Source: a virus
Strand: one strand, 5' to 3'
Virus record (IMG/VR): IMGVR_UViG_3300010413_000015
Location: 10,952 to 74,951 of that record
DNA length: 64,000 nt
Shown: one piece after another, positions 12,643 to 63,906 of the stretch
Layout of the letters: each line of letters starts with the position of its first letter
How positions within the stretch are numbered: the first letter of the stretch is position 1
Program-made: the position numbers and the translations under genes
Notes under the pieces: generated by a model
Told to the model about the DNA's origin: nothing
Databases searched by the model: none
What the model saw: the letters and a program-made list of their open reading frames with translations, nothing else

Positions 12643-13088
12643 AGCGGCAACCTCTGCACAATGCGCACTTCAGCAATAACCCATGTGCCCAAGGGGTCGT
12701 ACTCAAACTGTAGATTCAGGTCCCCTCGTAGTTGGCCTGGCCAGTATCCGTCATCTCCAAATGAGAGGACCTCAAGGTCTGTGGCCAGCCATGCGTCCAT
12801 AAGGTCATTGGCGTCCCCGACATAGATGTCTTCCTGGCCATCGTTCATGGTGGGATATGTCCCGTCTGGGGCCTGCACGATAAGCCTACCTGCCCATTGT
12901 TTGAAACCTCGTCTTGTGCCGACAGAACTCAGGAGGCGTCCATCATACAGGGATATGCCATAGCTAGTTGCTCCCTCGAAGATGGGCCCAGAGAAACCTT
13001 CTACCAAAACAGCGTAACACCGCTTCGAGGAGCCACTGTCCCACTTTAGGAAAAGTCCGCCCCTGCTGGTTGGAAACTCTATTGCCAC
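12639..13088 (-). CDS. Distal tail (Dit-like) protein
   Basis: 149 aa immediately downstream of the tape measure (synteny only). Confidence 0.5.
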   Translation of the reverse strand: MAIEFPTSRGGLFLKWDSGSSKRCYAVLVEGFSGPIFEGATSYGISLYDGRLLSSVGTRRGFKQWAGRLIVQAPDGTYPTMNDGQEDIYVGDANDLMDAWLATDLEVLSFGDDGYWPGQLRGDLNLQFEYDPLGTWVIAEVRIVQRLPL

Positions 13089-16000
13089 AATCCCCCCCTC
13101 ATTCTCTGCCTGGAGGCAGTCTTGTTCAGCTCTGCCTCAAACTTCCTCCATATCTCGGCCGCCAGTTGTCTCTCGTCCTGCCTCCCTCCTTCAACCGAGA
13201 TAGAGACGTTCATATTTCCGACGGAAAATCCGCTTGCGGTCAGCCTGCGGAGTGCCATGTTGGGGACAATGGTCCCATTCTGGTCTGGAACGAAAATCTC
13301 TGGTCCCACTTCACCCACCAGGTAACTACTCCCGGCTGTGACATCCCCCCCACCAGCCAGGCTGTTCCCGCTTCCACCTCCATCCCCTTGAGACTGGAAC
13401 ATACGGTTCAGGCGGTTCTCGATGCGGTCCAGAAGGTTCTGCCAGGCCTTGTCAAGGCTCGAATCCCTCTTGACGCTGCTCTCGAAGTGACCAATTAGGG
13501 TGTCCCACTTGCCCCAGAGGTCTCCGTCTTTCGAGAAATCGCTGAGCTGCTGCCTCAGGAAGGCAGCATAGGCATCTTGGGTCAGGTCCTGCAACCGCTG
13601 GTGCTCTATCTGGCCAGGGAAGACCACTTCCTCGAAGTACTTCTGTTCCTGGGTCATTTGGGCCAGGCGATACATCATATCGTCCTCAGCAATCTCTTGC
13701 TGTTTCGCGGCAATCGCCTGCTGCATCGCCGCCATAGCCTCTGCTTCTCCCATTTGCTCCTGGAGGTGCTTCATTTGCAGTGCAAACGACTCATCCATGT
13801 GCTTCTTGGAAAGGTCGAAGTTCTCCTGCATGTGTCGCTTCTGGAGCTCATAGTTCTGCGTCATGTGCTCCTTCTGCATCTCAAACTGCTCGGTCTCTAG
13901 ACGCTTGATATCTTCGTAGTGTGATTCCTGGTCTTTGAATGCCTGCGCCTGTTGGGCCCACAGCTTCTCCTGTCGCCCTTCCTCAACACCCCTACGCTTC
14001 TCAGAGACACCATAGTCCTCTTCCATACGTCCCCGCTGGCGGAGAAGCTCCTGCTTCTCGCGCCCGGAGGCGAAGCGAATGGCCCGGTTGATATCTTCCA
14101 TCCCACGGGTGTACTGCACCCCAGCCTGTTGCCGGTTGAACGCCATATCTTCACGGCCCCAGCGCTGGCCCTGCATCATCTGTTGCCATTGAACACCGAA
14201 CTGCCTTCTCTGGAACTCGGTGTTGACACCCCACATTCTCTGGCCTAGGGCAAAAGACGCTTGCTGTTGGGCATAGCCCTGCTCCAGGCTCTCCGTCCCT
14301 TGCTGGAAACCAAGGTTCAGCCGTTCCTGGCCCTGGCGATACTGAAGGCGAGCGCTCTCCATGGCTCGCTCAATACCGGCCCTCTGCTGTTGCGCTGCCA
14401 TTGCCGCAGCCGCAGCCTGCATTCCGTACAGCTCTCGGGACTGTTCTAGCTTCAGTTCCGCTCGCTGGATTTGGCCTATCATGCCCATCTGGTAGGTTCT
14501 GCCACCATAGCTAGAGGTTGCCCACTGGCCAGTGCCCATGCGGTATGCCTGGCTCTGGCGTAGTTGGTTCCAGGACAGCGCCCTTGAAGCAAGCTGGCCT
14601 ATGCCGTAGATACCACCACCAGGCCCTATCTCGTGTAAGGGCATAGCCCCCTCCACCAGGGGCATCCCCATAGCACTACGGAACCCACCTACGGCCCCCT
14701 GTGCCTCTGCGCCAAAGACCCCTTGGGCCGCACTGTATCCCAGGGCAGAGCTGGCAAAGTTGGCCATCTCCCCAAACTGGGCGTACTCGAAGGGAGTCAT
14801 CTGTCCAGAGGCTAGTGCTGCCTGCAGGCCCTGCTCAAACTGCCCGGCTACTGCCCCGGCCATGCCAAACCCTCTGGCCACAGCTCCTTGGCCCATTACA
14901 GACTGGGCCCATACCTGGCGAGCTGCAGGAGAAACGCCACGGGCTGCCATTGCCTGAACCCGGCCCTGCAGGGCTCGGGCATTTCCGCCGAGGTACTGGT
15001 AGATTTGACCCCCAAGGCCGGCCGCAGCCTCATATTGGGCCATTCCCTGAGCGCTTTGCCATGGAGCATTGGCCATGAACCCTATGGCTTCTGGACTTCC
15101 TGCCGCAAAGCCATACTCTTGTGCCGCACCAACGCCAATGGCTGCCTGTTCCCTCCGAAGCATCTGCTCTGGGGTTACACCCGGAGGGGTATAGATGACT
15201 CGCCCGTCAGGGAGCTCAACCATTTGGCCTTCAAGTTCCTGCTGTAGCCCCTGATAGTATCGGGCCGCAGCCTCTGGACCAAGGCCGCGCATGTCTGCGA
15301 ATGTGCGATACTGGCTGGCAATCTGTGCCGTGGCTCCACCAACTGCTGCGGTCTGAGGACCAAGTGTTTGCCCGATTCTCTGAGCTACTGCACTACCAGG
15401 TGTATACCCCATGGCAGAGACAATGGGCTGCATGCCATACCGGGCCTCTTGAAGAGCTGCAAGCTGGGTGGTTGTGACCCCACCAGCAAGCTGGCCCATG
15501 TACTGCTGTAGCATTTGTCCTGATACTCCAACTCCTATCTGTTGGAGTTGTCCTGCAACCCCTGAGGCCATGAGGAAGTTCTGTTGCCCGGCTGCTGTTG
15601 TTGGGATGTAGGGAGACAGGGCCCACATCCCTGCGCCCGTCCCGATCCCCAGATACTGGCTTACTTGCTTTAGGGTAGAGGCCATCCCGGGAAGCTGCCC
15701 ACTAATGGCTGCTGGCCCGAGCTGCTTGGCCAGCTCATCTACTCTTCCTTCGTACACGGCCTTTGGCCCGTATCCGAGCTCGGCCAGATAGCTGAAGGTT
15801 TCGTACTTCTTTGCTGGGTCTAGACCTGGAATATCCAGGTTTTCGATGTGGAGGCTGGCCCGGTCAATCTCTATCTGGCCAGACTTCACATACTGCGCAA
15901 CACCCTCGCGCAGTTGGCCTGCGTAGTCCTTGTCCAGAATCGAGCGCAAGCCCATGCCAACCCCTGTCCCAAGAGAGAGGTCGCCCTTGGTAGGCGAGCC

Positions 16001-19000
16001 CCCACCAGCCATGCCCTTGAGCCAGCTAAAGGCACCTCTCTGCGTCTCAGGCTCTGTGGCCAGACCGAGAAGCTCCCGGTAGACATTTCCGGGGGCAGCC
16101 TGTTCATAGGCCTGCCCAAGGAGAAGCCCCCCGGTCACAACGCCACCTGCCAGGGCGGCGATTGGGCCCATTCTAGAGCCTATTCCCATCATACCTCGCC
16201 CTAGAAGGCTTTCTCCCCCTAGCGTCTTTCCGAATCTGCCGAGCACTGACGCGGCAATGCCGGCTTTCGCACCAAACTCGAGTCCCTTGAGAATAGGTCC
16301 ACCAACTGCACCCAGTCTTTCACCGGCCCCATATGCGCCAGAGGGACCACCTAGCGTTGCCAGTATCTCACTGATACCAGCTTGCCCTCGAAGTGTGCCC
16401 ATACCGAAGCCCTGGGCGAAGGCCTGCTGGCCAGCCTGGGCCTGCATAATCCTGCCCATGGGACTATCCATAATGGACTGTGCAGTACCCCCCATCTGTG
16501 TAGCAAACCCTATCTGGGCACCAGCAAGCCCCCGTGCCTGTTCCATAGCACGGTTCACTGGTCCCCCAAAGATTCGCTCGGCCGCTGTCCAGCGGAAGTA
16601 TGCACCGCCAAAGGAGAACTCCTGCAGGAGCTGGTCGAGGCCCTGGCCAAGTGTGCCACGCATGCCCTGTGGTCTCTTGGGAGCCGGCCTGCCCCTTTGT
16701 CCACCGGTAGCCTCATAAAGGTCGTACTGGAACTGCAGGGCGTCTCGTGTTTCCACAGCGCCGATAGTCTCTGTGAGGGCTGGCTCGTTCTCGATCTTCT
16801 CCAGTTTCCTGCCAAGACGTTGCATGTTTTGGGTTACTGTCGCAACCACATCTTGGGGGACACCTGCTGCAGTCAGACCCTGTGGACCAACTTTTGCCCA
16901 TTGCTCCCTAATGTCCTGGGCCTGGCGGAAGGTCTTGGTGAAGGACTGTGCATCTTTCAGCATCTCCTTCTCGGCCCGAGTCAGGTCTCTCTGTACGGCA
17001 ATGGTCTCCCTAAGCTCTGGGGTCCACTGCTTCAGATGGTCTGCCACCTCATCCAGGGTCTTCCTCATCGACCCTGACATCCACAATCCCAACTCCCAGG
17101 GCTTCCCGCTTCCGGCTGTCTGCCGGGGGTTCAGGTCACGTTGCTGTTGCCCCTGAGAGGGCGGTACAATTGGTGCGCCGGGGTCTACACCCGGAGGCAC
17201 CCAGTTAGGGTCAAAGTTGGGGCCGGGCATCCCCGCCAGGGGGTCTGCCGGGTCAACTGGTGGCCTGTTGGGAGGCGGGGGAGCACCGGGAGGCGCAGCC
17301 ACTGTAGGCCTGGCGGCTGCCGGCCGTCGGCCTGCCTGTTGGAGATGTCTCCTAAGCTGGCCAGGTCGCGTAACTGGGGACTGAGCCATTGCAGGTGCTG
17401 CAGTCGCAACCGGAGGCGTAGGCTGTGTGGCTGCTGGTTGAGTCACCTCAGTTGGTGGTGTAAGATTGGGTTCCGGCCCCATCTCTGGTGGCGCCACAGG
17501 GACCCTAGGTGCTCGCTCTGGGTGTGGGCTCTCTGCAACTGGAGGTTCTGCACCAGGTGTGGCTAGCCAATCTGCCATCCCAGACGCTTCCAGGGCCACT
17601 GCTTGTTCCTCAATACTGACCCCTTGTCCGGCCCCCTTCTTCAAAGCAGTAAGCCTGTCTTGCATCTCTGACTTAAACCTGAGAAGAGTGTCGGCCAAGT
17701 CCCGGCCCACGCTCCTGGCCCCAAACTCTCCGTACAGGTTGGCACCGTGCTTCTCTGCATACCGACTAACGGCTCCTGCCCACTGCCCACCGATTGCCTG
17801 TCCAGAGGCGGCCTCCCTTACCCAGTCCTCATGTGTCTGACCAGCCTTCATCATTCGGGGAAGAATCTTGTATCGCTGCTCGGGTGCGGAGAATCGCTTG
17901 AACATCATCGCAAACTGCTGGGCCTGCTTCTGGTTAGGCCCGGAGAACATTGCACCCGCTTCTTCGGGAGACACAACTCCCTGCTGTACAAGCTCGGCAA
18001 AAGCGCCGACACTCTCCTTGCGAAGTCCTGCAAGGTTTCGCAAGGTTCCGGTGCCTACTTTCTCCCATTCCCCGGTGCTGCGCATAAATGCCTTGCCCCA
18101 GGTAGTGGTATTCATGAGCGCATGAACACTCATGACGTCCTGGGGGGGGATGGCGGGTCTCTGAGTATACCCATAGCTGCGGTTCCAGATAGACTGTACG
18201 GCAGACCTGGCTGTTTGGCCTACCTTCCCAGGAATCTGGAGTGCCCTACTCATAAGCCTTCGCATGTCCTGGAATCCAGGACCTATTGCATTGTAGAGCT
18301 CCCGGTTTTCCTGAACAAGTTCCTCGACCTTGCCCTCATCCATGGTATGGTAGTCAAGGGCCTTTCTCCTGACAATCTCCATGGCCGCTTGTAGGTCTTG
18401 GTCTCCGGGAACCATCTCAGCAGGGAGGCTTCCAGCGCCCTCAGACTGCACACGCTTGCGCCCAATCTCACGTACTCGTTCTGGAGAAAGCTCTACACCA
18501 GCGGCGTCGTAGAACTTGCTACCTTGCACCTGAGCCCCACCAGTCATCAGGGCATAGGCAATGTCTGCGTCAAAGTCGCCGCCAGCCATACCCTGTAGGT
18601 ACTCTGACACTACCATCCGGTTGGGGTCATAACCTAGGCCCTCGATAAGCTCTCGGGACACAGTAATGCCCTGAGCTGCACGGTCAAAGCTGGACTCTCC
18701 CTGAGTGGGGAAGCGAATCATGAAACCTGCTTGCCCGGCCTCACGGTCTGGCAGGTACATCTCATTGATGCCCAGTGCCTTAGAGCCAAGCACCTTGTAC
18801 CCCTCCAGGTACCTCCTGCCAGGTGTTACTCCCTGGGCCCGTCGGAGGCCCTGCTCGGACTCAGAAATCTTGCGTTGCTCCTCCATGACGGTCCTGCGAT
18901 ACTCGACAAACGGCGCCTTCTCCTGATTCAGAAGGGACCGGACCATGCCAAACTGCCCTCTAAGGTAGCGAGAGACCTCTGTTTGTTCGAGGGCACCTTC

Positions 19001-35587: not shown

Positions 35588-36682
35588 CTATGTGAAGAGA
35601 AGCGCCCAGTTGACAATGCCGGCAGCATAAGCTGCCAGGATTTTGTCAAACTCGCCTGGTACAAAGCTGTCACTGCCATCTAGGATATTCAGCATGGCTC
35701 GTCCTAGCCGGTGGGCCTGGTCGGCCACAGTGCCAGGACCGACCTCCCCCTTGGCCTCATCAACGAGTCTAACCAAGTAGGGCTGGACTAGGTTGGTGAG
35801 ATGCTCAGAAAGCATCTCCTTGTGCATGTCGCCTTCCTTGACGTGGTGTACAAGGGGGGCACCTACCGTAGCAACCATGCCCCTTATGTCCATGATGGTC
35901 TTGAGGATGTACATGCTCCACACATCATCATGCCGGCGGACACGGAACCCGGAAGGGGTGAAGTAGTCGGGGGGCTGCCAGAATGCTGGAACCAGGGAGG
36001 CAACCATTTGCACGTTCATGATGGACAGCGGCAACTTCTGTCCATAGGCCAATGCCACGTACTCTTGGGAAAGCTTTCGGTCGGCGGTAGCCTCGTCTCC
36101 GTTTAACTTGTCGATGCCATTGATGTCGGCTGTGCCAGTCCACAGCCCCTCGTTGAATGAGGGGGCTACAATCTTCTGAAGGCCCTTGTAGGCCTCCTCG
36201 CCACGGTACTCATAGGGATACCCTCGTGCCCACATCCTCTTCTCACCGAGCTGTCCCAGTGGGTTGTACCAGCCGGACAGTGTGTAAAACGTGTCAGCTG
36301 CTACTTCCCTGCCTATGGGGATTTTGTCTATGAAGTCGGGGGTGACTCGAGTATCGCAATCATCGTCCAAGAGGATGATGATATCATGCTTCTCCTTGGC
36401 TGCGTAGTACAAGCCGAATGCCTTACACGAGGGGTTGCGTCGTGCAATCCACATGCCTGCATTTGGCAAGTATGCCTCCTGGTCGCTATGGGTGAATAGC
36501 TTCATGTTCTTTGGCATGGGCCCCCTCTCCGCCATGCCATTCGAGTCATCCACCACAATGATTTCAGCGACTCTGTCCAGCAATGGGTCAAGATACTCAA
36601 CCGGAAATGCCCTCACGCTGGGAATCACCACACAGTACGTAGGGTCCCTCATTGTCTCGCGCATCCTTCCCTCCTTGTCCAT
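35588..36682 (-). CDS. RGP / UDP-arabinopyranose-mutase-like (GT75-like) protein
   Basis: IILLDDDC, ARGYPY, GLWTGTADINGI, RRHDDVWS resemble reversibly glycosylated polypeptide motifs. Confidence 0.65.
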   Translation of the reverse strand: MDKEGRMRETMRDPTYCVVIPSVRAFPVEYLDPLLDRVAEIIVVDDSNGMAERGPMPKNMKLFTHSDQEAYLPNAGMWIARRNPSCKAFGLYYAAKEKHDIIILLDDDCDTRVTPDFIDKIPIGREVAADTFYTLSGWYNPLGQLGEKRMWARGYPYEYRGEEAYKGLQKIVAPSFNEGLWTGTADINGIDKLNGDEATADRKLSQEYVALAYGQKLPLSIMNVQMVASLVPAFWQPPDYFTPSGFRVRRHDDVWSMYILKTIMDIRGMVATVGAPLVHHVKEGDMHKEMLSEHLTNLVQPYLVRLVDEAKGEVGPGTVADQAHRLGRAMLNILDGSDSFVPGEFDKILAAYAAGIVNWALLFT

Positions 36683-37347
36683 AGTGGGGCCTTAAACTGG
36701 ACTTCGTAGTAAAGCTCCATGTCTGCCTCGTTCAATGCCAGAATCCTCTTCTGGAGGTCCCGGTTCCCAACAAGCTCTCGCAGCCTGTCCGTGTATGTTG
36801 GTGATGGTGAAAGGTTGGTCCTGGGTAGTACGAAGGTCGGCCAGTGCAGCTTGTTTGCCAGCATGCAGATCCCCTGCTCCAGGAACTCGTAGGAGATTGC
36901 AGCGTCTACATCTTCTAGGTTGCCCACCATCTCTGTCTGGATGTTCTGCCTGGGTCTCTGCTCAATGAAGTCATCGACTGTCTCAAAGTTCACCATGTAG
37001 GGATGCGACTTCTCCCAGAGGTACCACGAGAAGATGAGAGACATTGGGTGCCTGACAATAGTCACTACAGGCATGTTGTCAACCAGGTTCTTTGGATAGA
37101 GAAATAGTGGGGTGTGCCCGTGGTAAGCAGGCATGGGCACGAACTCTTCCAAGAGACGGGCCCTGTGCCAGGCGGCCAGAAACGCCGGCCGGTCAGTCCA
37201 ATACCTGGAGTCCTGGTCACGGACGTAGATTCCCATAAGACTCTTTTCGGGGCCAGGAAAGTACCCAATGTTCTCTGCCCCGTACACCTGGTTCATGACT
37301 TGTTTAAGGGTAGTCCCCCCAGTTCTAGGAATGTGAATGTGAATCAT
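36649..37347 (-). CDS. Sulfotransferase (PAPS-dependent, carbohydrate type)
   Basis: 5'-PSB HIPRTGGTT, 3'-PB TIVRHP...SWY, C-terminal NEADMELY. Confidence 0.75.
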   Translation of the reverse strand: MIHIHIPRTGGTTLKQVMNQVYGAENIGYFPGPEKSLMGIYVRDQDSRYWTDRPAFLAAWHRARLLEEFVPMPAYHGHTPLFLYPKNLVDNMPVVTIVRHPMSLIFSWYLWEKSHPYMVNFETVDDFIEQRPRQNIQTEMVGNLEDVDAAISYEFLEQGICMLANKLHWPTFVLPRTNLSPSPTYTDRLRELVGNRDLQKRILALNEADMELYYEVQFKAPLWTRREGCARQ

Positions 37348-37813
37348 TCTTCTGCCTCACACACAGGAACGCCAGTGTTTCCTGGTTATGTGTCCATGGC
37401 CTGTCGAACTGTATGCAGGTGAGCCGAGACTTGGACAGGTAATTTGCCATGATTGGTATATTGAATCCCGTCTTGTGGAACTCGCCCTCGTGCTCCTGAT
37501 TGCCGAAAATGATGTCCAGCCACCAGTCGCTGCTTCCCATTTCTAGCCACCTGGTGACACACCATTCCAGACTCGGGACACGGATATCTGCGAAGCCGTC
37601 CGGATGAAGAACTCGGGCAATCTCCTTGAGGGCCGGAACCACGCAGGCCTTAGGAAGATGTTCCAAGACATGTGAGCAGTATAGGTCTTCCACAGACCCG
37701 CTGAGGAGGGGAAGCCGCAGCAAGTCTGCGCGGACGTCCCCTCCTACAAAGCGGTCTATCCCGAAGTAGCCTTGTAGCTTGTTCCTGCCGCACCCAAGGT
37801 CAACTTTTATCAC
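37325..37813 (-). CDS. Class I SAM-dependent methyltransferase
   Basis: VDLGCG, SHVLEHL, EIARVLHPDG. Confidence 0.85.
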   Translation of the reverse strand: MIKVDLGCGRNKLQGYFGIDRFVGGDVRADLLRLPLLSGSVEDLYCSHVLEHLPKACVVPALKEIARVLHPDGFADIRVPSLEWCVTRWLEMGSSDWWLDIIFGNQEHEGEFHKTGFNIPIMANYLSKSRLTCIQFDRPWTHNQETLAFLCVRQKNDSHSHS

Positions 37814-38009
37814 TGGCACCCTCCACAGGCAACATGCTATCCGGGCTCCAGGCGCTAGAATCCATTGGCACCCAAGAATCATCCCCACCAATGGTTATTG
37901 TGTACCCTGGCTTCGCTATGTACCTTGGGACCGATTCTTCTAGCAATCGGTTCAGCTTCTTGAGCTCCCGCAGAATGTCTTCCAGAATCTGGTGTTCTAG
38001 TCTAGCCAT
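37800..38009 (-). CDS. Hypothetical protein
   Basis: 69 aa overlapping both neighbours. Confidence 0.45.
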   Translation of the reverse strand: MARLEHQILEDILRELKKLNRLLEESVPRYIAKPGYTITIGGDDSWVPMDSSAWSPDSMLPVEGASDKS

Positions 38010-39450
38010 CTTTTACCACCGTCCCTCCCAGAATCATGATCTGGGCATCTGCCGGGGGTGGCCCCGCTTCTACCGGGCTTGACCCATAGCTCATCTGGTA
38101 GAACCAGTCTAGGTTTGTCCACCGGTCCCCCATGAACAGTTGGTCAAGTTCCTCCAGGGTCAGCATGTACAGGTCCCACGCAGTCCCGGGGGTGGCCTCT
38201 TTCTGTGGGGTGGAGAAGACAAAGTTTCCGCCAGGCTTGAGTACCCGGTACACCTCGTTTAGGAACGCTTCCTTGTCTTTGATGTGCTCCAGGACCTCGA
38301 AACACAGCACTTGGTCAACGGTGTTGTCCCCCACAATCAGCATCTTGGTTGCATCGCTGGTTGCGAAGGTAACATTCGATGCCTCGTAGAACTTCTTGGC
38401 ATGCTCGATGCTTTCCTCATCGATGTCTACACCAATGTACTCCTTGGCGTTGACCACAACGGCAGCACCATACCCGGTGCCACAGCCAATGTCCAGAACG
38501 ACATCGTCATGGGTAAAGTTGGCGGCCCACTCGTATCGCTGAACGTGGTCACGGAGGATTCCACCGGTCCCACCACCCTCTGCACGCTCCCGAGGGCCAT
38601 GGTTGTAGATAGGATACAGGCCCCCATGCTGGCGCATGGCCTGCACGCTGGAGTAGTCACGGCCGGCTATCGCCTTCATAGCCTCTTCCATATTTCTGGG
38701 GCTCTCTCCGTGCCATTGATGGTACACCATTAGGTTTCCAGAGGGGGCCGGGCTTATAGGGCTCTTGACGATGATGGTCGAGATCCCCCCAATGCGCCTG
38801 CGGTCCAGGAAGTCCATGTCCACACTGCCCCACACGTCAAACTCTCGAAAACCACCCAGCCAGCGCCACTTGTCCATCTTCATGGCCCAGAAGACCTCGG
38901 AGTCCCAAGTGTTGCGCTTCTCCTGGTTGTTGTTGGTGTAGTCGATTCCCTTCACCACACCATCAGCCCAGTTCTCCATGTAGAAGCCATCCATGGTCCT
39001 CAGATTGTGCAGGTCCCTCTTCCAGGCCGGCATGGGCCCCTGAGGCAGCCAGTAGGGGATAGCGGTGGCCCAGGAGCCCGGGTTGGCCATGATGGTCTCG
39101 TACATAAGCTCCAGCGCATCAGGGGGAACCATAATCTCCGGGTGGGTGGCTACCAGAACCTGGCCGGTGGCATGGGTTGAGACCGCGTTGCGCACCTTGC
39201 ACCCATCCCTCCACTTGCCCGGTTCCTTCGGAAGGTTCAGGTCCTCAGGGGCAGAGAAGTACCGCAGGGGCAACCCCGCCTCCTGCCACTTCTCTACAAC
39301 CTCTCGGGTATTATCCTGGCTGGCATCGTCGGCAATCAGGTACTCCCATTCATCAAAGGGGAGCGTCTGTTTTGAGTACGTGTACAGGGCATTGTCTAGC
39401 ATCTCGGCCCTGTTAAACGTTGCGGAAATCACGGAAATCTTCATCATCAA
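38002..39450 (-). CDS. GT2 glycosyltransferase fused to C-terminal SAM methyltransferase
   Basis: ISVISATFNRA, IADDASQD, GGFREFDVWGSVD, HQWH; then VLDIGCGTGYG, FEVLEH, RVLKPGG. Confidence 0.9.
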   Translation of the reverse strand: MMMKISVISATFNRAEMLDNALYTYSKQTLPFDEWEYLIADDASQDNTREVVEKWQEAGLPLRYFSAPEDLNLPKEPGKWRDGCKVRNAVSTHATGQVLVATHPEIMVPPDALELMYETIMANPGSWATAIPYWLPQGPMPAWKRDLHNLRTMDGFYMENWADGVVKGIDYTNNNQEKRNTWDSEVFWAMKMDKWRWLGGFREFDVWGSVDMDFLDRRRIGGISTIIVKSPISPAPSGNLMVYHQWHGESPRNMEEAMKAIAGRDYSSVQAMRQHGGLYPIYNHGPRERAEGGGTGGILRDHVQRYEWAANFTHDDVVLDIGCGTGYGAAVVVNAKEYIGVDIDEESIEHAKKFYEASNVTFATSDATKMLIVGDNTVDQVLCFEVLEHIKDKEAFLNEVYRVLKPGGNFVFSTPQKEATPGTAWDLYMLTLEELDQLFMGDRWTNLDWFYQMSYGSSPVEAGPPPADAQIMILGGTVVKDG

Positions 39451-44585: not shown

Positions 44586-45238
44586 GCTGTATTCTCCTCG
44601 ATAGCCGTGAGGAGCGCGATAATCTTGTTCAGCTTCCTCAACACCTTGAGCTGGAAGTCTGGGTCCGGGACAGGGTCCGTCTCTTCAGCCAGCGCTTCAA
44701 CTTCCTCAAACTCTACGTCGAAATGGTCGTGGTTCGTCCCTACTATCATGCCTAACCCCCGTATCACGTCAGAATGTGTTTCGTGCCCGTAGGCCCACAT
44801 GCCGTGAGGCCCTCTCTCACCTTTTGCAGGGTCGTAGTACGCACCCCGCCCCATGTCGCCCGTGACAGTGCCATCATTCTTGGTTACGAGCTCTACCGCC
44901 CGACCTGGCACCATGCCTGTGACAAGCCCATCCGCAGGCCCTGCCCAAATGTCAATCGGTGCATCTGGCCAGTACCAGGCCACTCTCGTCAACGGCCGGT
45001 TGCCATACTTGTCCGACATCGTCACCTGAATACTGGAATTGGTGTCCACCCTCTCCACCAAACGCACAATCCGCCAGACCTTCGTCCCCTCAGGTACAAC
45101 CGGCCGGTATATCTGGTACGGCCCGTACTTGGCTAGCAAGTATACCTCATCCCTCGTATTCCCATTCGCATCCACAACCTCAATGGTCATAGTGCTGCCA
45201 TCTCCTTTCTTGAAGCCGTACGGCACCCTCGTCTCCAC
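44582..45238 (-). CDS. Hypothetical protein, first gene of the late operon
   Basis: GGAGG RBS; MGRGAYYDP..GERGPH..W...SDVIRGLGM..TNHDH domain. Confidence 0.65.
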   Translation of the reverse strand: METRVPYGFKKGDGSTMTIEVVDANGNTRDEVYLLAKYGPYQIYRPVVPEGTKVWRIVRLVERVDTNSSIQVTMSDKYGNRPLTRVAWYWPDAPIDIWAGPADGLVTGMVPGRAVELVTKNDGTVTGDMGRGAYYDPAKGERGPHGMWAYGHETHSDVIRGLGMIVGTNHDHFDVEFEEVEALAEETDPVPDPDFQLKVLRKLNKIIALLTAIEENTA

Positions 45239-45296: not shown

Positions 45297-45362
45297 TGCA
45301 ACCATAGATGCGTAGACGTAGACAATGCCTGTGCCTGCCTGCAGTTGCGGGAGTGCGCATCG

Positions 45363-45405
45363 CTTGACACTCCATCATAGGGGGAGTACTTGATGGAGTG
45401 TCAAG
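45363..45405. repeat. 15-bp perfect inverted repeat at the late/early divergence
   Basis: CTTGACACTCCATCA-N13-TGATGGAGTGTCAAG. Confidence 0.9.
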
Positions 45406-45555
45406 TTATGCGCTCGCACATTGAGAGGGGGGTCACACTTTGGAAAGCCGTATTAGTAGTATAGGGTGAGTCCGGGACTGTTGCTTGGGGGGGGATACCC
45501 CCCCCTCCGCACCCCTATCCCGGGCTTAAATCTTTCCCTATACCAGGAGGCAGCG

Positions 45556-46219: not shown

Positions 46220-46310
46220 TACAACTGAATACCTCGCAGAGGGCACGCATGCGCCTTAATTGCCATGCGTGTAATGCGCCAGCGCCAGTCCCAAGCCTGG
46301 GCACAGTACC
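46220..46310 (+). ncRNA. Twister ribozyme, circularly permuted (type P5-like)
   Basis: CGCA-GAGGG-P1 hairpin (CACGCATG/CATGCGTG)-TAA-TGCG...GCCAG-TCCCAAGC-CTGG; core elements and both pseudoknot partners present. Confidence 0.75.
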
Positions 46311-48904: not shown

Positions 48905-48952
48905 GGCCTATCGGCCTAGACCGTGAATCTTGACTCTTGAAAGGAGAGTACA

Positions 48953-49290: not shown

Positions 49291-49773
49291 ATGAACGGCT
49301 CAATAAGGCTAGTTTTCGAGATTGAGGGCACGCCACCTGACAATCAAGGTGGCATCTGCTACATTGACAATGATGTCAGCGATTGGGCCTCGGTAGATGA
49401 GGCCCTGTTCGAGCTCGAACTCGAGCCCGGGGTTGTGGAAGCCGGCGCCCAAATCATGTGTGGGGTACATGGTTGGGCCCCAGCCCCGTTCGAGGTGTGT
49501 GAGTACTGCCGTAGCGAGGAAGCCGAGAGGCGGATGGAGTATATACATACCCTATCTGCTGATGCCCTTGCTCAGGCACATGCGGAAGAGGAAGCCCGGT
49601 ACTGGGGCTACAGCCTGTATACAACCCGTGAGCAGGAACAAGCCTGGGACGCCCAGGCCCGTTATGAGGCCGAGGCACAAGCTGAAGAAGCCGCTAACTG
49701 GCGGCTCCAGACCGAGGAAGAAATCTCCGCTATCGCGGAAGACCACGAGCGGTTCGCCGCTCGTTTCTTGTAA
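49291..49773 (+). CDS. Acidic hypothetical protein
   Basis: GGAGG RBS; strongly Glu-rich; CxxH...CxxC. Confidence 0.6.
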   Translation: MNGSIRLVFEIEGTPPDNQGGICYIDNDVSDWASVDEALFELELEPGVVEAGAQIMCGVHGWAPAPFEVCEYCRSEEAERRMEYIHTLSADALAQAHAEEEARYWGYSLYTTREQEQAWDAQARYEAEAQAEEAANWRLQTEEEISAIAEDHERFAARFL

Positions 49774-50180
49774 GCCTCACCACGAACAGAGTGGTGTAGC
49801 CGCTCCACAGGAGCGCAAGGGGGAGGCCTGCCTGGTTCCTTCCCCTGTTTCTGAAAATCCAGGAGAGGGTAGGACGTTGAAAACGGCTGGGGCACAGGGC
49901 CGTGAGTAGACGTATGTGTGCTGTGCCCAAGGTAATGGAGGGTCCCCTTGTCGCAAATTGGCCCTGTGTAGGCAGCATGCCGCCTAACCAAGCATGCCGA
50001 GCCAGGGACTGGTATCCCCTTGGTCGTGTACGAGTATGATACCACGCAGATGACCTAGACTGCTCGTGTACCCCAGCACTGAGCAGATGAACACAGGGGA
50101 GGTAACACCCGCCACCTGTAGTGAGTGCGGGACATGGGTACCCAGGGGGAGGCAGGCCACCTCCCCCGATCTTATCTTAT
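49774..50180 (+). ncRNA. Candidate structured leader / ncRNA
   Basis: About 400 nt without a credible ORF; many hairpins; long-range pairing of 49825-49833 with 50150-50158. Confidence 0.4.
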
Positions 50181-50224
50181 TTCTAAGGGCTAGGCCCACG
50201 GCGTGGGCAGAAAGGTGGTGTATC

Positions 50225-50638
50225 GTGGCAGACTACCTCATCAGGTTTGACGGTGGTTCTAGGGGAAACGGAACCGACAACGCTGAGGGCTATGGCTCCT
50301 ACAGCATCGAGGCGGCTGATGGCCGCAAGGTCCTGCAACGCCTTGATTTCGGGACCGGCGTGACCAACAACGAGGCCGAGTACCGGGCGCTCCAGGCAGC
50401 CGTGGTAGACCTCCACGGCCGCATCAGCAAGGTGTCTAGCCCGGCCAACTTCTCCCTGGTTATTCAGGGAGACTCGAGCCTGGTCATCAACCAGCTTCAG
50501 GTGACCAAGCCGTGGAAGTGCAAGGCCCCAAACCTCATCCAGTACCGCAATTTCGTGCGGGACCTTCTGGCCACCTTTGGCAGCGTCTCCCTTCAGCATG
50601 TGGGAAGGGACGCAATGGTTGCAGAGTTCGGTCATTAG
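50225..50638 (+). CDS. rnhA: Ribonuclease HI
   Basis: FDGGSRGN, TNNEAEY, GDSSLVINQL, WKCKAPNL. Confidence 0.85.
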   Translation: MADYLIRFDGGSRGNGTDNAEGYGSYSIEAADGRKVLQRLDFGTGVTNNEAEYRALQAAVVDLHGRISKVSSPANFSLVIQGDSSLVINQLQVTKPWKCKAPNLIQYRNFVRDLLATFGSVSLQHVGRDAMVAEFGH

Positions 50639-50767
50639 AGAGGGCTGTGGCTCTCTCTTTTTCTGTCCCCCCTGTAGGGGGACGATCCTTACCGGGTACC
50701 TCCATACCCGGGCGCGACAGGACGCCTTCCTGTCAGAGAACTAAGCTTCAAATGGAAGGAGGGCCAG

Positions 50768-52966
50768 ATGAAGCTCGCCGTTCTCGCAATTCTCACCCTG
50801 GTGTGGGAGGGGACCGTGCCGTACCTCCACACACTCTACGAGGCTCTCGTGGGAGAGCCTCTGGCAGTAGTCCAGGTCAGCACCAAGCCCAAGCACCGCC
50901 AGTGGATGACACGCCTGCTGGTAGGGCTTCAGGACAAGGGGTGGCACCTGGACTTTGCCACAAGTGCCAGAAAGAGCGGACAGGCCATCATTTCCCAGAC
51001 TGGGAAAGTGTCCTCGCTCTTCTGGCGCACGGCTGAGGAGGCCATTGCCTATGGCAGTATCCTTCTCACGCCGTGCTGGGGTGCGTACCCCCAGTCCATG
51101 ACCCTGAAGGTTCGGGTGGTGGAGGATGGGGAGTACGACACCGGGGATTGCCACGGCAAGGCGAGCCGGGCAGTCTATGCCGCCCTTGGTGGTGTTGTGC
51201 AACAGGCCGCACAGTTCCGCCTAGGGGTCCTGGCCGGTGGCTTGCTGGCCAAGGGCACATTCTGCATCCCAGATGTGTCCCTCGCCTGGCCAGACGGGGT
51301 AGACCTGATTCTGCCCCGGAGCTGCTTCAAGAGCAGCAACAAGCCTGGCCCTGGCACGTATACCTGGGACCTGGTCCTGGGTGTCGTGAACTGGAGCAAG
51401 CCCACCCCGACCAAGATGGGCTGGCAGATGCTCCAGTGGTTCAGTTGGGCAGCGGTAGAGGCCGACATCCTTCCCAGGGTCAAGGAGGGAGCAGCCCAAC
51501 TGGTTGCCGCCCTGGCAGATGTCAGGGCACTTGCCGAGCTTCTCCGGCTATACTCTGTGCCCAGCATCGACACAGAGGACGGGGAAGATGACCAGGCCGA
51601 GGTCTTGCTCATCGACGTTCTCCGAGCAGACCACAGTGGCTACCTGTCCCGGCACCCACACGTAGTTCGGCGGGTGAGCGACATGCTGCGCCGACGGTGG
51701 CAGCACCTCGCAACCGGTGGTGGGCAGTTCCTGACCGGCCTTATGGGGCTACCGGATGACACCCTGCCATTCGGGGTGGTGGCCACCAGCGACATCCCTG
51801 TCGGAGATGTCCTTGTGACCCGGTATCCCATCAGGTTCTGGGGTGACGTTCGGAAATGGGTCAACGTCGCGCCCGTCCAGAGCCTCAAGGGCACCATCTG
51901 GATGTCCCATGAGACCGCTGCCGTGCTGGGTGGCGATTTCGACGGGGACTACTTCCAGGTGGTTCCGTCAGCCACCTATCCCGCCCTGTCCCAGGACATG
52001 GAGAACTGGGCCGACCGCCCCACTGTGAATGTGGTCAAGGTCAAGGATAGGAGGGCCACCCCCCTGAGTGCCCAGGGGCTGGCCGAGGTCTTTATGAGCA
52101 ATGTGGACAACATGGTGGGTAATGTGGCCCTGCTCATTGCCCGTGCTGGCGCTGCCGGCAACCATAACGCAGTTGTCCAACTTGCCCAGGAGTTGCAGGT
52201 CGCCGTTGACAAGTTCAAGTTCAACGTAGACAACGACACCGACTTCATTGATGCCTGCAACACGTCCATTCCAGACCTCACATGGGCATGGGACCGTGAA
52301 CACCGCGATGCCTACCATGCCCGGCCGATGAAAGTGCACGAGCGGGATATGGACACCATATCCTGCCTCATCCGGGAGGTCAATGCCCTGTGGGTTCCTT
52401 ACCAGGGTATGGCCCTTCCCCTATGGCACTTCACCGGCCTGTTCTCCAAGCCCGACCAGCACATGGATGCAGCTCGTGGGCTGGCAGTGAGGTATGCTGC
52501 CAATGTGCGCACGGCTCTCCGTGCCGGGGACAAGAAGGCCATCTCTAAGCTCTTCAAATCCCTGGAGGCGTGGTCGCGGCAGGTGGAGAATCCGACCGAG
52601 TGGGCTGCTGCCATCTGGCATGCGGTTCACGCGGAGAATGCCAAGGGCACCGGCTCGCTGGCCTTTGCTGCGTTTCCGACGGAAATTGCAGAGAGGGTGG
52701 CCAGCCTGCCGTCCACCCCCGAGGCACCGCGCAATGCCACCATTGTTGGCCTGGAGAAGAACGAGTGGGCCAACAACGCGAACGACCTGGTAGGTGAGCA
52801 GCAGGTGATGTTCGATATCACCACGTTGCATGGCCAGGTCCGGTTCTCCGCCGTGGTAGACGGGCGGGTGGTCGGCATTGTCTCCAAAGAGACCCCTGTC
52901 CCCCAGGGGACATTCACCATGGGTCTCACGGTAAAGGGCGCTTGCGTGTACGCGAGTGCCTCCTAG
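50768..52966 (+). CDS. Single-subunit two-barrel RNA polymerase (YonO / cellular-RdRP-like), non-virion
   Basis: TGDCHGK, QFRLG...LAKGT, VTRYP, LGGDFDGDYF (51935-51949), LQVAVDKFK. Confidence 0.85.
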   Translation: MKLAVLAILTLVWEGTVPYLHTLYEALVGEPLAVVQVSTKPKHRQWMTRLLVGLQDKGWHLDFATSARKSGQAIISQTGKVSSLFWRTAEEAIAYGSILLTPCWGAYPQSMTLKVRVVEDGEYDTGDCHGKASRAVYAALGGVVQQAAQFRLGVLAGGLLAKGTFCIPDVSLAWPDGVDLILPRSCFKSSNKPGPGTYTWDLVLGVVNWSKPTPTKMGWQMLQWFSWAAVEADILPRVKEGAAQLVAALADVRALAELLRLYSVPSIDTEDGEDDQAEVLLIDVLRADHSGYLSRHPHVVRRVSDMLRRRWQHLATGGGQFLTGLMGLPDDTLPFGVVATSDIPVGDVLVTRYPIRFWGDVRKWVNVAPVQSLKGTIWMSHETAAVLGGDFDGDYFQVVPSATYPALSQDMENWADRPTVNVVKVKDRRATPLSAQGLAEVFMSNVDNMVGNVALLIARAGAAGNHNAVVQLAQELQVAVDKFKFNVDNDTDFIDACNTSIPDLTWAWDREHRDAYHARPMKVHERDMDTISCLIREVNALWVPYQGMALPLWHFTGLFSKPDQHMDAARGLAVRYAANVRTALRAGDKKAISKLFKSLEAWSRQVENPTEWAAAIWHAVHAENAKGTGSLAFAAFPTEIAERVASLPSTPEAPRNATIVGLEKNEWANNANDLVGEQQVMFDITTLHGQVRFSAVVDGRVVGIVSKETPVPQGTFTMGLTVKGACVYASAS
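52673..52685. repeat. 13-bp quasi-palindrome, copy 10
   Basis: TTTCCGACGGAAA in the RNAP gene. Confidence 0.95.
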
Positions 52967-53260: not shown

Positions 53261-53605
53261 ATGAAGAACCAGTGGAAAATCGAGCAGCTTGCGACAGCCC
53301 TATACCTCAAGGTCAGAACAGGAAAGTATTCGCCTTGGGAGGTGTCAGACCTTGCTCTGCGCATTTCTGACCTGGCGATAGACGAGTACAGGAGCGCTGT
53401 CGCGCAAGACTGTGAGATTGCCCAACCGGGCGTTGACAACGTTCTTAATCGTGGTACAATATCCACGTGCGGAACAGAAGACCAAACCAAATCTATACAA
53501 CCAAAGGAGAAGGAAAATGTTCCACAAAGTGAGTTTGATTGGACATCTGGGCCAGGAGCCGCAGCTGCGCTACACGCCGGACGGGATTCCCGTCTGCAAC
53601 ATTAG
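53261..53605 (+). CDS. Hypothetical protein
   Basis: AAAGGGG RBS; 3' end overlaps the ssb promoter and start. Confidence 0.4.
   Translation: MKNQWKIEQLATALYLKVRTGKYSPWEVSDLALRISDLAIDEYRSAVAQDCEIAQPGVDNVLNRGTISTCGTEDQTKSIQPKEKENVPQSEFDWTSGPGAAAALHAGRDSRLQH
53433..53460 (+). promoter_or_regulatory. sigma70-type promoter for ssb
   Basis: TTGACA-16 bp-TACAAT with GTGG. Confidence 0.6.
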
Positions 53606-53987
53606 TGTGGCGACCAAGGAGAGCATCAGCAAGAGGCTGCCGACTGGCGACGAGCGCTCTTGCCCTCAGGGCTGGACCACGAGCCAGAACGGCAAGAACT
53701 GGGAGTTGACCACCTGGTTCCGCGTGGCGCTATGGCGCGGCCTGGCCGAGACGGCCAACCAGTACCTCCACAAGGGTTCCCAAGTCTTCATCGAGGGGAC
53801 CATGTCTGGGGAGGCCAGCGGTGGCAGCCAGGAGCCGAGGGTCTGGACGGCGAACGACGGAGCGCACCGCGCCAGCTACGAGATTACCGCTCGCACCATG
53901 AAGATGCTGGGCGGGAATCGCAATGGCGATGCAGGCAGCACGGCGCCGGTCGAGTATGAAGAGGAAGACCCTCCCTTGCCCTTCTAG
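53517..53987 (+). CDS. ssb: Single-stranded DNA-binding protein
   Basis: KVSLIGHLGQEPQLRYTPDG, TTWFRVALW..LAE...YLHKGSQVFIEG, acidic tail ending LPF. Confidence 0.95.
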   Translation: MFHKVSLIGHLGQEPQLRYTPDGIPVCNISVATKESISKRLPTGDERSCPQGWTTSQNGKNWELTTWFRVALWRGLAETANQYLHKGSQVFIEGTMSGEASGGSQEPRVWTANDGAHRASYEITARTMKMLGGNRNGDAGSTAPVEYEEEDPPLPF

Positions 53988-56019: not shown

Positions 56020-56071
56020 GTGGAATTGCCTATCGGCTTAGACAACGCCATTGACTAAAAAGGGAGGCACC

Positions 56072-58091: not shown

Positions 58092-59007
58092 CATTGAGAT
58101 TATCCGCAGTGGGGACACGGCAATGTTCAAGCTACGGAACCAGTCGTCCAGGGAAGGAAACTGGTGCTACAACATGGAGCCGCTTGTGCCTTACTCCAAC
58201 CAGGTGTATCAGGCCAAGCTGCCCCTTACCCTGGACCTAGTAAGGACCGTGCCTATCTTGACCAAGGCCGTTCCAAAGGTCGAGGGGTGGCCCGAGCTCT
58301 CTGCGAAGGAGTACGACAAGCAAGAAGCTCTTCTTTGCAGGCCTAGGGACCGTGATGGAAAGTGGCCTGACCTTGACACAGAATTTGCGTACCGCAGATT
58401 CCACGAAGTCTATGTCTGCATCGAGAAGTATCACCATGAGGTGGTGATGTCCGTCACCTACACCAAAGACACGGTCCAAGAGGTGGGGGTGGAGCAGCCG
58501 TACATCAAGCCGTTCCATCAGGTAGGAGAGGACCTATTCAAGCCCTGGGGAGAGTACGACCGGTACGGATACTGGCAAGAGGTTATTCACCAGATAGCCG
58601 AGGAGTACGTGTTTGTCCTTTCTGGTGCGTGGACAAGGTTGCCCCACGAGTATCGTGTGAGTGCCTTGGACAGCTCGAAAAGGATATCGCTGTATGTAGG
58701 CAATGAAGAACTTCTTGCCAATGAAGTTCTTCGCCCGGTTAAGGATGCCATGGATGAGCTAGAAAAGCTAAAGGAGGCAGACCTGAGAAAGATTCGCCGT
58801 CTCTTTCAGGGATATGTTGGCCGGCAGGCTGCGGTGCCCTCCATACAGGATGTCCTTAGGAAGCTGAAACACCTTAGCACCATGCTCAAGGATATCAAGG
58901 TGTATGCCAAGGATGCTACTAGCTATAGGGCAGCACAGTCGTACCTGGCAACGTACATAGCAGAGCTGCAGAATAGGGCCGAGAGAGGGGCCGGGAAGGA
59001 GGAATGA
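58081..59007 (+). CDS. Hypothetical protein
   Basis: 308 aa, AAGGAGG RBS. Confidence 0.6.
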   Translation: MHPDIEIIRSGDTAMFKLRNQSSREGNWCYNMEPLVPYSNQVYQAKLPLTLDLVRTVPILTKAVPKVEGWPELSAKEYDKQEALLCRPRDRDGKWPDLDTEFAYRRFHEVYVCIEKYHHEVVMSVTYTKDTVQEVGVEQPYIKPFHQVGEDLFKPWGEYDRYGYWQEVIHQIAEEYVFVLSGAWTRLPHEYRVSALDSSKRISLYVGNEELLANEVLRPVKDAMDELEKLKEADLRKIRRLFQGYVGRQAAVPSIQDVLRKLKHLSTMLKDIKVYAKDATSYRAAQSYLATYIAELQNRAERGAGKEE

Positions 59008-60026
59008 TGTCTGCCGTTTCGGAAGAACATCTGAAGAAGATTCTAGAAGACCATCTATTGTGGATTCGGAGGGAACAAGCCGGCAAGCAGGCCGACCTGC
59101 ACGGTGCTGACCTGGGGGGGGCCCACTTGCAGGGGGCCGACCTGAGAGGGGCCATCCTGCGCGAGGCCAACCTGCGGAGCGCAGACCTGCTCGCTGCCGA
59201 CCTGCGCGGGGTCATCATGTCGGGGGCCGACCTGGGCAAAGCCAACCTGTGCGGTGCCAACTTGCGTGGGGTCGAGCTGCTCCACGCTAACCTAAGCAGG
59301 GCCGACCTGCTTAGGGTAGACCTGCGTGGGGCCAGACTGCGTGAGGCCGACCTGCGCAGTGCCGACCTGAGCGGGGCTGACCTAGGCAAGGCCGACCTGA
59401 GCGGAGCCAAGCTGTGCTCAGCCCACCTGAGTAGCACCAACCTGGTTGGCGCCAATCTGGATAGAGCGTGCCTATGTAAAGCATACCTGTCCAACGCAGA
59501 CTTGCATGGCGCGAGTTTGCGAGAGGTGAACTTCTTCAGGGCCACCCTGGTTAGAGCCAACTTGAAGGGGGCATATCTGCAGGGTGCGAACCTGAGCGGG
59601 ACGAATCTTATGGGAGCCCAGTTAGAGGAGGAGGCCGGATTATGTTGGTACGCCACCTCCATGGACGGAAAACTACTCGAGCTGCAAAGAACGTTCTGCA
59701 GGCAATGCCCACCCAACCGGTATGGTGGGCGCATTGTTTTCAGGACACTCACAAGCTCGAACATAGTTCCTCGCACCAGGTACATGCCAGGGTACACTTA
59801 CACGGCTCCCAACTTGAGCTTTGATTCTGCAACATCCTGTCATCCCGGCATCTACGCAGCCAGCCTTGAGTGGATGCTTTACCGGTATCCGGGTGTCCCA
59901 TTGGTTGTCTGCTACGTCAGGGACGGTGAGTGGGTTATCACGCGCAAGGGCGCAATTCGGTGCAAGAAGTTGCGTGTTCTGAAACTCTACTCTGGGGAGG
60001 GAATGGATGGCGGGATGGTGGGTTGA
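59004..60026 (+). CDS. Pentapeptide-repeat protein
   Basis: Long A(D/N)Lxx repeat tract plus C-terminal CHPGIY domain. Confidence 0.9.
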   Translation: MMSAVSEEHLKKILEDHLLWIRREQAGKQADLHGADLGGAHLQGADLRGAILREANLRSADLLAADLRGVIMSGADLGKANLCGANLRGVELLHANLSRADLLRVDLRGARLREADLRSADLSGADLGKADLSGAKLCSAHLSSTNLVGANLDRACLCKAYLSNADLHGASLREVNFFRATLVRANLKGAYLQGANLSGTNLMGAQLEEEAGLCWYATSMDGKLLELQRTFCRQCPPNRYGGRIVFRTLTSSNIVPRTRYMPGYTYTAPNLSFDSATSCHPGIYAASLEWMLYRYPGVPLVVCYVRDGEWVITRKGAIRCKKLRVLKLYSGEGMDGGMVG

Positions 60027-62585: not shown

Positions 62586-62777
62586 GTTTGGATTCTGGCT
62601 TGCTATTGCAATGATCTCCATGTGTGTGCTCGCTGCAATAGCCCAAAAAGTGAGTAAGCAATAAGGTCAGGTGCCGGCTTTGGTGGAGTAGCCTATCGGC
62701 TCAGGCTTGGCCTTGTGACTGCCAAGGGAGGGTGCAGGGATTGTCCTGCACCCTATTTCTATTTCAAGGAGGGAACC

Positions 62778-63774: not shown

Positions 63775-63906
63775 GGCAAGGGTAGCTCAGTGGTAGAGCA
63801 ACGAAAAAGCGAATCACCATACCAATTATCCCCTTGTAGGGGGGCGGCCGTGATTTGTTCTAGCCTATGGAGCCGTTGGTCGCAGGTTCGAATCCTGCCC
63901 CTTGCC
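63775..63906 (+). tRNA. tRNA-His-like RNA (anticodon ATG) with a 59-nt insert at 29/30
   Basis: Acceptor GCAAGGG/CCCTTGC plus G-1:C73; D arm GCTC-AGTGGTA-GAGC; T arm GCAGG-TTCGAAT-CCTGC; anticodon stem ACG^GC/GCCGT once 63804-63862 is removed. Confidence 0.65.

Follow-up and report, generated by a model that had tools for sequence, protein, structure and literature searches.

What does a tailed phage do with a small, stand-alone RNA polymerase (RNAP) whose gene lies just behind one for a ribonuclease H (RNase H)-like protein? The question is raised by a stretch of 64,000 nucleotides, here called the window, that covers bases 10952-74951 of the linear 74,951-bp virus record IMGVR_UViG_3300010413_000015 in IMG/VR. 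The sample behind this record is marine sediment, and the source is an uncultured ~75-kb tailed phage (siphovirus); the record is estimated to be ~86% complete. Positions given below are those of the window unless they are assigned to L023, the left arm of the record. An open reading frame (ORF) at 50768-52966 (+) encodes 732 amino acids (aa) from an ATG start behind a GGAAGGAGGG ribosome-binding site. Among relatives of the enzyme that transcribes cellular genes, and of the polymerases of eukaryotic RNA interference (RNAi), the simplest are single-chain RNAPs built on two double-psi beta-barrels (DPBBs); to our knowledge only a handful of them have been assayed. The evidence set out here supports the placing of the 732-aa protein in this group. 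As to its task, we lean towards an active enzyme that acts after infection and transcribes DNA for a subset of the plus-strand early or middle genes, a reading that we hold with slightly better than even confidence.

An initial annotation had assigned the ORF to single-subunit two-barrel polymerases of the YonO or cellular RNA-dependent RNA polymerase (RdRP) type on the basis of four motifs. All are present as it quoted them, namely TGDCHGK (aa 125-131; 51140-51160 (+)), QFRLG (aa 149-153; 51212-51226 (+)) followed by LAKG (aa 160-163), TRYP (aa 351-354; 51818-51829 (+)) and GGDFDGD (aa 388-394), of which the metal-binding DFDGD occupies 51935-51949 (+). The assignment itself is borne out by a protein family match, a structural model, fold comparison and active-site conservation, all of which agree. 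The Pfam RdRP family PF05183 matches aa 145-490 at E 9.5e-10 (38.2 bits; cut-off 23.8), the only match to it above the cut-off in the 75-kb genome, and PHROG 34895 matches at E 1.5e-42. Judged as sequence matches, these are far beyond chance. Among control genomes, the PF05183 profile gave a match below the cut-off in Bacillus subtilis, which we assume, unchecked, to be YonO. A PDB sequence search with the protein and its 18-sequence profile returned nothing meaningful, and relatives in that database were found by fold comparison only.

An AlphaFold2 model made with 18 homologues has a mean pLDDT of 88 and a pTM of 0.81, and it contains both DPBBs; a fold without them, which the initial annotation had named as a refutation, is thus not what the model gives. 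Barrel B (51083-51415 (+), aa ~106-216) holds TGDCHGK, QFRLG...LAKG and an S-x-FK motif and forms beta strands in the model; barrel A (51728-51967 (+), aa ~321-400) holds TRYP and DFDGD. The DPBBs of the p97 N-domain superpose on aa 322-402 with a root-mean-square deviation of 1.6. A bridge-helix-like segment lies at 52163-52219 (+) (aa 466-484), and its residues Q477, D481 and K484 are kept in 133-138 of 139 relatives, the alignment in which all residue conservation was counted. The protein ends in a beta-rich domain (52715-52963 (+), aa 650-732; model strands 656-731) that is conserved in close relatives; no structural match was found for these 83 C-terminal aa, and the PDB matches end near aa 648.

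The closest known folds come from both eukaryotes and phages. Foldseek against the PDB gave maize and Arabidopsis RDR2 (1e-18), QDE-1 (2e-15) and Thermus-phage gp64/gp62 (4e-11), followed more weakly by crAss-like gp66 (2e-6) and gp96 of phage P23-45 (3e-6). Phage P23-45 has a pair of such enzymes, the non-virion RNAP gp64 and the virion RNAP gp96, which is fused to the tape-measure protein (Chaban et al. 2024, PMC10770324; PDB 8f72, 8f5m, 8h2m); the counterparts of gp64 are P74-26 gp62 and P32 gp64 (PMC10770324). Alignments to RDR2, QDE-1 and gp64/gp62 (Foldseek, VIA-align) run over 513-584 residues within aa 1-648 and cover both barrels, and the gp64-like structure matches closely over the entire catalytic core of the phage protein, including the clamp. 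Structure matches in BFVD are uncultured-phage 'RdRP' proteins and P23-45 gp64.

The active-site residues are conserved. In barrel B, residues D127 (135/139), Q149, R151, K162 (136/139), G163, S185 and K188 (137/139) are each found in 135-137 of the 139 relatives. In barrel A, the aspartates D390, D392 and D394 are found in 138, P354 in 137 and R352 in 115. In sequence terms this set fits the invariant residues that define two-barrel polymerases, among them Rpb2 K979, K987 and D837 (Ruprich-Robert and Thuriaux 2010, PMC2919709); from the order of the motifs, K162, K188 and D127 would be their respective counterparts. Profile comparison by hhalign leads to the same phage enzymes as the fold. 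With the 139-sequence alignment, barrel B of P23-45 gp96 pairs with barrel B of the 732-aa protein at E 1.3e-9 and a probability of 96%. The match to gp64 improves from E 0.16 with 18 sequences to E 1.5e-4 (probability 51%) with 139, over the region from DxDxD to the bridge helix only, and the bridge-helix-like segment is there paired with the QVAVD..K stretch of gp64. Sequence and model together thus support a single-chain two-barrel polymerase of the RdRP-like or YonO-like class of phages and mobile elements. The enzyme type and its pairing with RNase H are already known, and the phage protein is a solid further member.

The initial annotation had also noted an RNase H ahead of the polymerase, and this too holds. 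The gene extends over 50225-50638 (+) and encodes 137 aa from GTG 50225; the longest frame is 50066-50638. GTG 50225 is the probable start, because it is preceded by AAGGTGG and a terminator-like hairpin (50145-50167) falls inside the longer frame. The product matches RVT_3 (PF13456) at 24.1 bits, above the cut-off of 21.6, RNase_H (PF00075) at 16.7 bits, below the cut-off of 25.8, and the PHROG family 'Rnase H' at E 8e-4. Three of its carboxylates, D in FDGGS, E in NNEAEY and D in QGDSS, align with those of canonical RNase HI; a fourth can be placed only ambiguously in the short C-terminus (RDAMVAEFGH). Between this gene and the polymerase lies a structured 129-nt spacer (feature at 50632-50772 (+)) in which a terminator-like hairpin and its T-run (50637-50658) are followed by three further hairpins and the ribosome-binding site. 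Its predicted RNA fold has an energy of -60.6 kcal/mol (z -3.35), equalled by 0 of 200 shuffles.

The pairing is shared by relatives. A quick maximum-likelihood tree places the window, on a long branch, inside a clade of 12 loci with an SH-aLRT of 97. RNase H or an RNase H-like gene stands upstream of the polymerase gene, directly or within ~1 kb, in nine of these 12 loci (the window, L009, L010, L011, L013, L015, L019, L021 and L025). Several loci have the RNase H as a fusion with a DprA/SLOG-like or DUF488 domain, and L012 has kept the DprA/SLOG-like and DUF488 domains without RNase H. The other clade of the tree comprises ~805-aa forms from IMG/VR, Coleofasciculus-type forms and ~1,100-aa forms, and in it RNase H is absent upstream of the polymerase gene. 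Genes upstream of the polymerase in this distant clade carry NADAR, AlkB, DUF4326 or SLOG domains.

An exhaustive profile-free search among 1.84 billion representatives found 288 clusters of relatives at 50% identity, and the best identity of the 732-aa protein to anything is 46-48%, with 46% the best in a set of 5.8 billion proteins. A tblastn search of 50,697 cultured-phage records returned no match at E 1e-5; there was a chance match at E 3. Related loci come from metagenomes, IMG/VR and contigs of metagenome-assembled genomes (MAGs) labelled Clostridia, Desulfobacterales, Chloroflexota/Anaerolineae and Coleofasciculus, and the relatives include a protein of a Pleurocapsales cyanobacterium as well as one of a Coleofasciculus MAG. 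Five IMG/VR contigs (L001-L005, 12.4-18.3 kb) carry an ~805-aa homologue followed by an ORF of 1,861-1,967 aa; the copy in L001, the sole one scanned, had no Pfam match, and in L001 a NADAR gene precedes the polymerase gene. In L024 (59-12053), which is placed with the distant clade, BREX genes (PglX-like, PglZ, BrxL) immediately precede a close homologue of 41% identity, and genes for a single-stranded DNA-binding protein (SSB), DUF932 and DUF4351 follow further downstream, without RNase H; the arrangement resembles the border of a mobile element within a defence island.

How, then, might such an enzyme be used? Minus-strand genes span ~2.3-45.2 kb of the window and include those for portal, tail tube, tape-measure protein and glycosyl- and methyl-transferase, and plus-strand genes run from 45.4 kb to the end and through the left 11 kb of the record. 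The polymerase would most likely be made after infection and not packaged in the virion, because its gene lies in the plus-strand, non-structural arm between the RNase H-like gene and an SSB gene. It would then provide host-independent (rifampicin-insensitive), DNA-templated transcription of some plus-strand early or middle genes, and it would do so without many of the accessory domains of cellular RNAPs, with the RNase H-like partner handling the RNA:DNA hybrids that the polymerase makes or needs. Known relatives serve different sets of genes. YonO transcribes the late genes of SPbeta (Forrest et al. 2017, PMC5467207), and in the Thermus phage P23-45 the early and middle genes fall to gp64, the late ones being read by the host RNAP (PMC10770324). 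For the partner, the initial annotation had proposed the clearing of R-loops or the maturation of a primer; both are reasonable, and both have been proposed earlier in the literature (PMC3417536).

The distribution of host-type promoters bears on which genes the phage enzyme could serve. A scan for TTGACA-17/18-TATAAT, scored out of 12 with 10 or more taken as strong, works at the crude level of consensus matching. It found nine strong sigma-70 matches in the 75-kb genome, three of them perfect. On the plus strand these are 919-947 (12/12), before an AAA_24 gene; 53433-53460 (11/12 with an extended TG), before the SSB gene; and, in L023, 1645 (11/12 with TG) and 10198 (10/12 with TG). On the minus strand they are 893 (10/12), divergent from the site at 919; 35278-35249 (12/12 with TG), upstream of the portal gene; 37082 (10/12); 45296-45268 (10/12 with TG), before the operon that starts at 45238; and 54706-54678 (12/12), before a gene for an XRE-type helix-turn-helix repressor-like protein. 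On these sites, host RNAP is clearly used for many phage genes. The initial annotation had remarked that promoters of this kind are wanting around the polymerase gene, and the scan concurs: there is no strong match on the plus strand from 45.4 to 53.4 kb, where two 9/12 matches are the best, and all nine lie elsewhere. Terminator-like hairpins occur in the same block at 49745, 50145 and 50637. A Twister-P5 ribozyme (Rfam, 57.3 bits; gathering threshold 37.6) is found at 46235-46300 (+), between two small plus-strand ORFs of this promoter-poor block and ~4.5 kb upstream of the polymerase gene.

One lead to a promoter of the phage's own came from these searches. A 16-nt motif, GCCTATCGGCYYAGRC, followed after 6-8 nt by TTGACT (TTGTGACT in the third copy), has three plus-strand copies, at 48906-48921, 56028-56043 and 62691-62706, which lie ~45-85 nt upstream of three genes; at up to three mismatches, 0.33 copies are expected from shuffles. 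It is a candidate for a phage-specific promoter or operator and the only phage-type promoter lead found. Enrichment of k-mers over the intergenic DNA gave nothing convincing.

Several points weigh against a transcribing enzyme with a hybrid-handling partner. We know of no characterised member of the clade to which the polymerase belongs. No convincing repeated phage-type promoter motif was found beyond the three-copy lead. The nearest relative of the RNase H-like protein, in L025 (34% identity), carries a lysine in place of the third carboxylate, and what the pairing conserves may thus not be catalysis. YonO displaces its transcript in the normal way and leaves no hybrid sensitive to RNase H (PMC5467207), so a partner that clears hybrids is not obviously needed. 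Finally, two distant relatives occur in replication gene clusters, a context that fits a role in replication as well as one in transcription.

A role in replication is the best of the alternatives, although we judge it unlikely. The polymerase would act as a primase or R-loop maker on phage DNA, perhaps on single strands coated by the neighbouring SSB, the RNase H-like protein would trim or remove the RNA and a host DNA polymerase would extend the product. The conserved pairing with RNase H suits such a scheme, and so do the neighbours: the SSB gene (53517-53987 (+); PF00436, E 8e-24) lies downstream of the polymerase here, as it does downstream of the homologue in L024, and in L027 it is found 2.4 kb upstream. 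RNase H and SSB are, however, ordinary genes of the early region of phages, and in the window a separate sigma-70 promoter precedes the SSB gene. Two distant loci, L016 and L028, have the homologue in a row of clamp-loader, delta, beta clamp, RNAP homologue, PolA, small ORF and UvrD. The homologue in these two loci (L028 4185-15128, on a Coleofasciculus MAG contig, and L016) has 30% identity, and Macro-VWA and EAD10-NACHT genes flank the row. No match to PolA, PolB, DnaB, Prim-Pol or Toprim was found in the 75-kb record, and no replicase turned up in Pfam and PHROG scans of its larger ORFs; against this, a replicase may sit in the missing part of a record that is incomplete, and many temperate siphoviruses have none anyway.

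QDE-1 makes RNA on single-stranded DNA (PMC9508822), and for cyanobacterial polymerases linked or fused to RNase H a role on RNA-DNA hybrids or as a primase was proposed by Iyer and Aravind in 2011, as cited in PMC3417536, so that the priming idea dates, on comparative grounds, from 2011-2012. The assayed prokaryotic and phage relatives (YonO, gp64, gp96 and crAss gp66) are nonetheless all transcriptases. The further step, that the polymerase makes up, with the RNase H-like protein and SSB, a self-contained module for priming in a phage without a recognisable DNA polymerase, primase or helicase, is somewhat less likely again. If this is true, the known primases would be joined by a new enzyme class, with a bearing on the proposed common origin of the enzymes of transcription and replication. 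The compact, well-modelled polymerase of the window is suited to asking whether its branch transcribes or primes.

The initial annotation had gone further than transcription of some early genes. It called the 732-aa enzyme the second polymerase of a cascade, in which a virion RNAP would read the 45.5-53 kb block and the 732-aa enzyme would then serve later genes. That a second protein with the polymerase motif exists is correct: a search of six frames for DFD[GA]D gave just one further match, GGDFDAD (18563-18577), in a 2,689-aa ORF at 13079-21148 (-). This ORF occupies the tape-measure slot, because the tail tube gene (22021-23136) and two small ORFs come before it. Its N-terminal ~1,200 aa have only two homologues among the 5.8 billion proteins, in the range of lengths that the search covered, and a scan of viral contigs for relatives of this region found none. 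The DxDxD is invariant in all three members of this small family, and an R-x-P lies 46 residues upstream. In hhalign, the R-x-P...DxDxD region matches barrel A of the 139-sequence RNAP family weakly (E 0.0019, probability 14%). Barrel B was undetected in the tape-measure protein against either polymerase family, comparison with gp96 gave only non-corresponding regions (E 0.12-0.3), and an AlphaFold2 model from the three-sequence alignment was unusable (pLDDT 35). We put the chance that the N-terminal ~1,200 aa are a virion polymerase at about even. A ComEA-type helix-hairpin-helix insert at aa 603-657 of the protein (19180-19345 (-)) is missing from both homologues.

The complete cascade, in which the tape-measure polymerase reads the promoter-poor block and the 732-aa enzyme goes on to the late structural genes, appears improbable. 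It has precedents in the hand-over from virion to non-virion RNAP in P23-45 (PMC10770324) and in the transcription of late genes by YonO (PMC5467207), and the want of strong sigma-70 sites in the block, together with the DxDxD, R-x-P and barrel-A match of the tape-measure protein, would suit it. The polymerase fold of its first enzyme is, however, only putative, and no repeated AT-rich motif like the pre-early promoter of P23-45 was found. Strong host-type sites (45296-45268 and 35278-35249, both with TG) stand before two minus-strand operons of the structural half, which disfavours a YonO-like late-gene role and speaks against the proposal that the 732-aa enzyme serves later genes. Because these sites front the operon at 45238 and the portal gene, late transcription looks at least partly host-driven, and in P23-45, too, it is the host RNAP and not gp64 that reads the late genes. 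We retain the more limited reading, in which the 732-aa enzyme would transcribe some plus-strand early or middle genes.

That the enzyme instead copies or amplifies RNA, for example to yield double-stranded or antisense RNA for regulation or counter-defence, is very improbable: the best family is the eukaryotic RdRP, the top structure matches are RDR2 and QDE-1 and a twister ribozyme in the same strand block implies RNA processing there, but the RNase H partner indicates RNA:DNA hybrids and not double-stranded RNA, no RNAi-like partner genes were seen, and the assayed phage relatives are DNA-dependent (PMC5467207, PMC10770324).

The remainder of the phage holds other elements worth recording. 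Where the operon starting at 45238 (-) and the plus-strand arm diverge, a long, near-perfect inverted repeat occupies 45335-45435, with 15-bp arms that each contain TTGACA and an RNA fold of z -6.2; its possible roles are those of operator, origin or structured leader. A 13-bp palindrome, TTTCCG(A/T)CGGAAA, has 14 exact copies genome-wide at spacings of 1.2-8.8 kb, against a shuffle expectation of 0.02. They lie at 2672, 5881, 13215, 22003, 27498, 35535, 42369, 47083, 48286, 52673, 57457 and 61785 of the window and at 2335 and 9497 of L023. Most are intragenic, on either strand and with unconserved flanks, and one falls within the polymerase gene; related loci have no copies. The palindrome was considered as a promoter and rejected, as it lies mostly inside genes and has no relation to gene direction.

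Genes for a glycosyltransferase, an RGP-like protein, a sulfotransferase-like protein and a methyltransferase are embedded among the structural genes (23049-24239 and 35588-39450, both (-)), which suggests that virion proteins or the cell surface are modified. Two pentapeptide-repeat proteins are encoded, at 59004-60026 (+) of the window and 5675-6424 (+) of L023; cyanobacteria are rich in this family. A tRNA match (Rfam, 50.5 bits) is stretched across 131 nt at 63776-63906 (+) and could thus be interrupted; with ARAGORN, the window gave no tRNA.

Several known systems invite comparison. The cyanobacterial and mobile-element polymerases of the RdRP-like/YonO-like kind belong to the same superfamily (PMC2919709), and a profile named 'Cyano_RUMTOR_01356' appears in Supplementary Data 4 of PMC10770324. 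Unlike the cyanobacterial fusions, the RNase H here is a separate, divergent and C-terminally short gene, and the element that carries it is a complete-looking tailed phage. From QDE-1 and RDR2 (PF05183; PDB 2j7n, 7w82, 7rqs) the 732-aa protein differs in being phage-encoded, in an identity of 14-17% and in having neither the eukaryotic N-terminal nor the head domain. YonO of the Bacillus prophage SPbeta, itself of siphovirus type, is likewise a minimal two-barrel RNAP in one chain and distantly akin to RdRPs. Compared by description, it differs in its size of ~100 kDa, in its late-gene role and in not being reported with an RNase H partner (PMC5467207).

P23-45 offers a parallel in genome organization. 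In both phages, siphoviruses, a stand-alone RNAP gene lies outside the structural module of a genome that also encodes a giant tape-measure protein with DFDxD ~800-860 residues from its N-terminus, and hhalign ties the RNAP family of the window to barrel B of gp96 and to gp64. There are also differences. The 732-aa enzyme has ~12% identity to gp64, appears to belong to a separate sequence family and matches the Pfam RdRP family; its C-terminal beta domain is an addition, and so is its RNase H partner. By hhalign, the N-terminus of the tape-measure protein has no detectable similarity to gp96, and its polymerase fold is putative. The sample, too, is marine sediment and does not come from a hot spring. 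Should the tape-measure fusion be real, the succession of an injected and a second phage polymerase known from P23-45 would extend beyond the Thermus phages of hot springs and would have been put together from different polymerase families. A two-polymerase cascade may be taken as a fair, partly supported analogy to P23-45.

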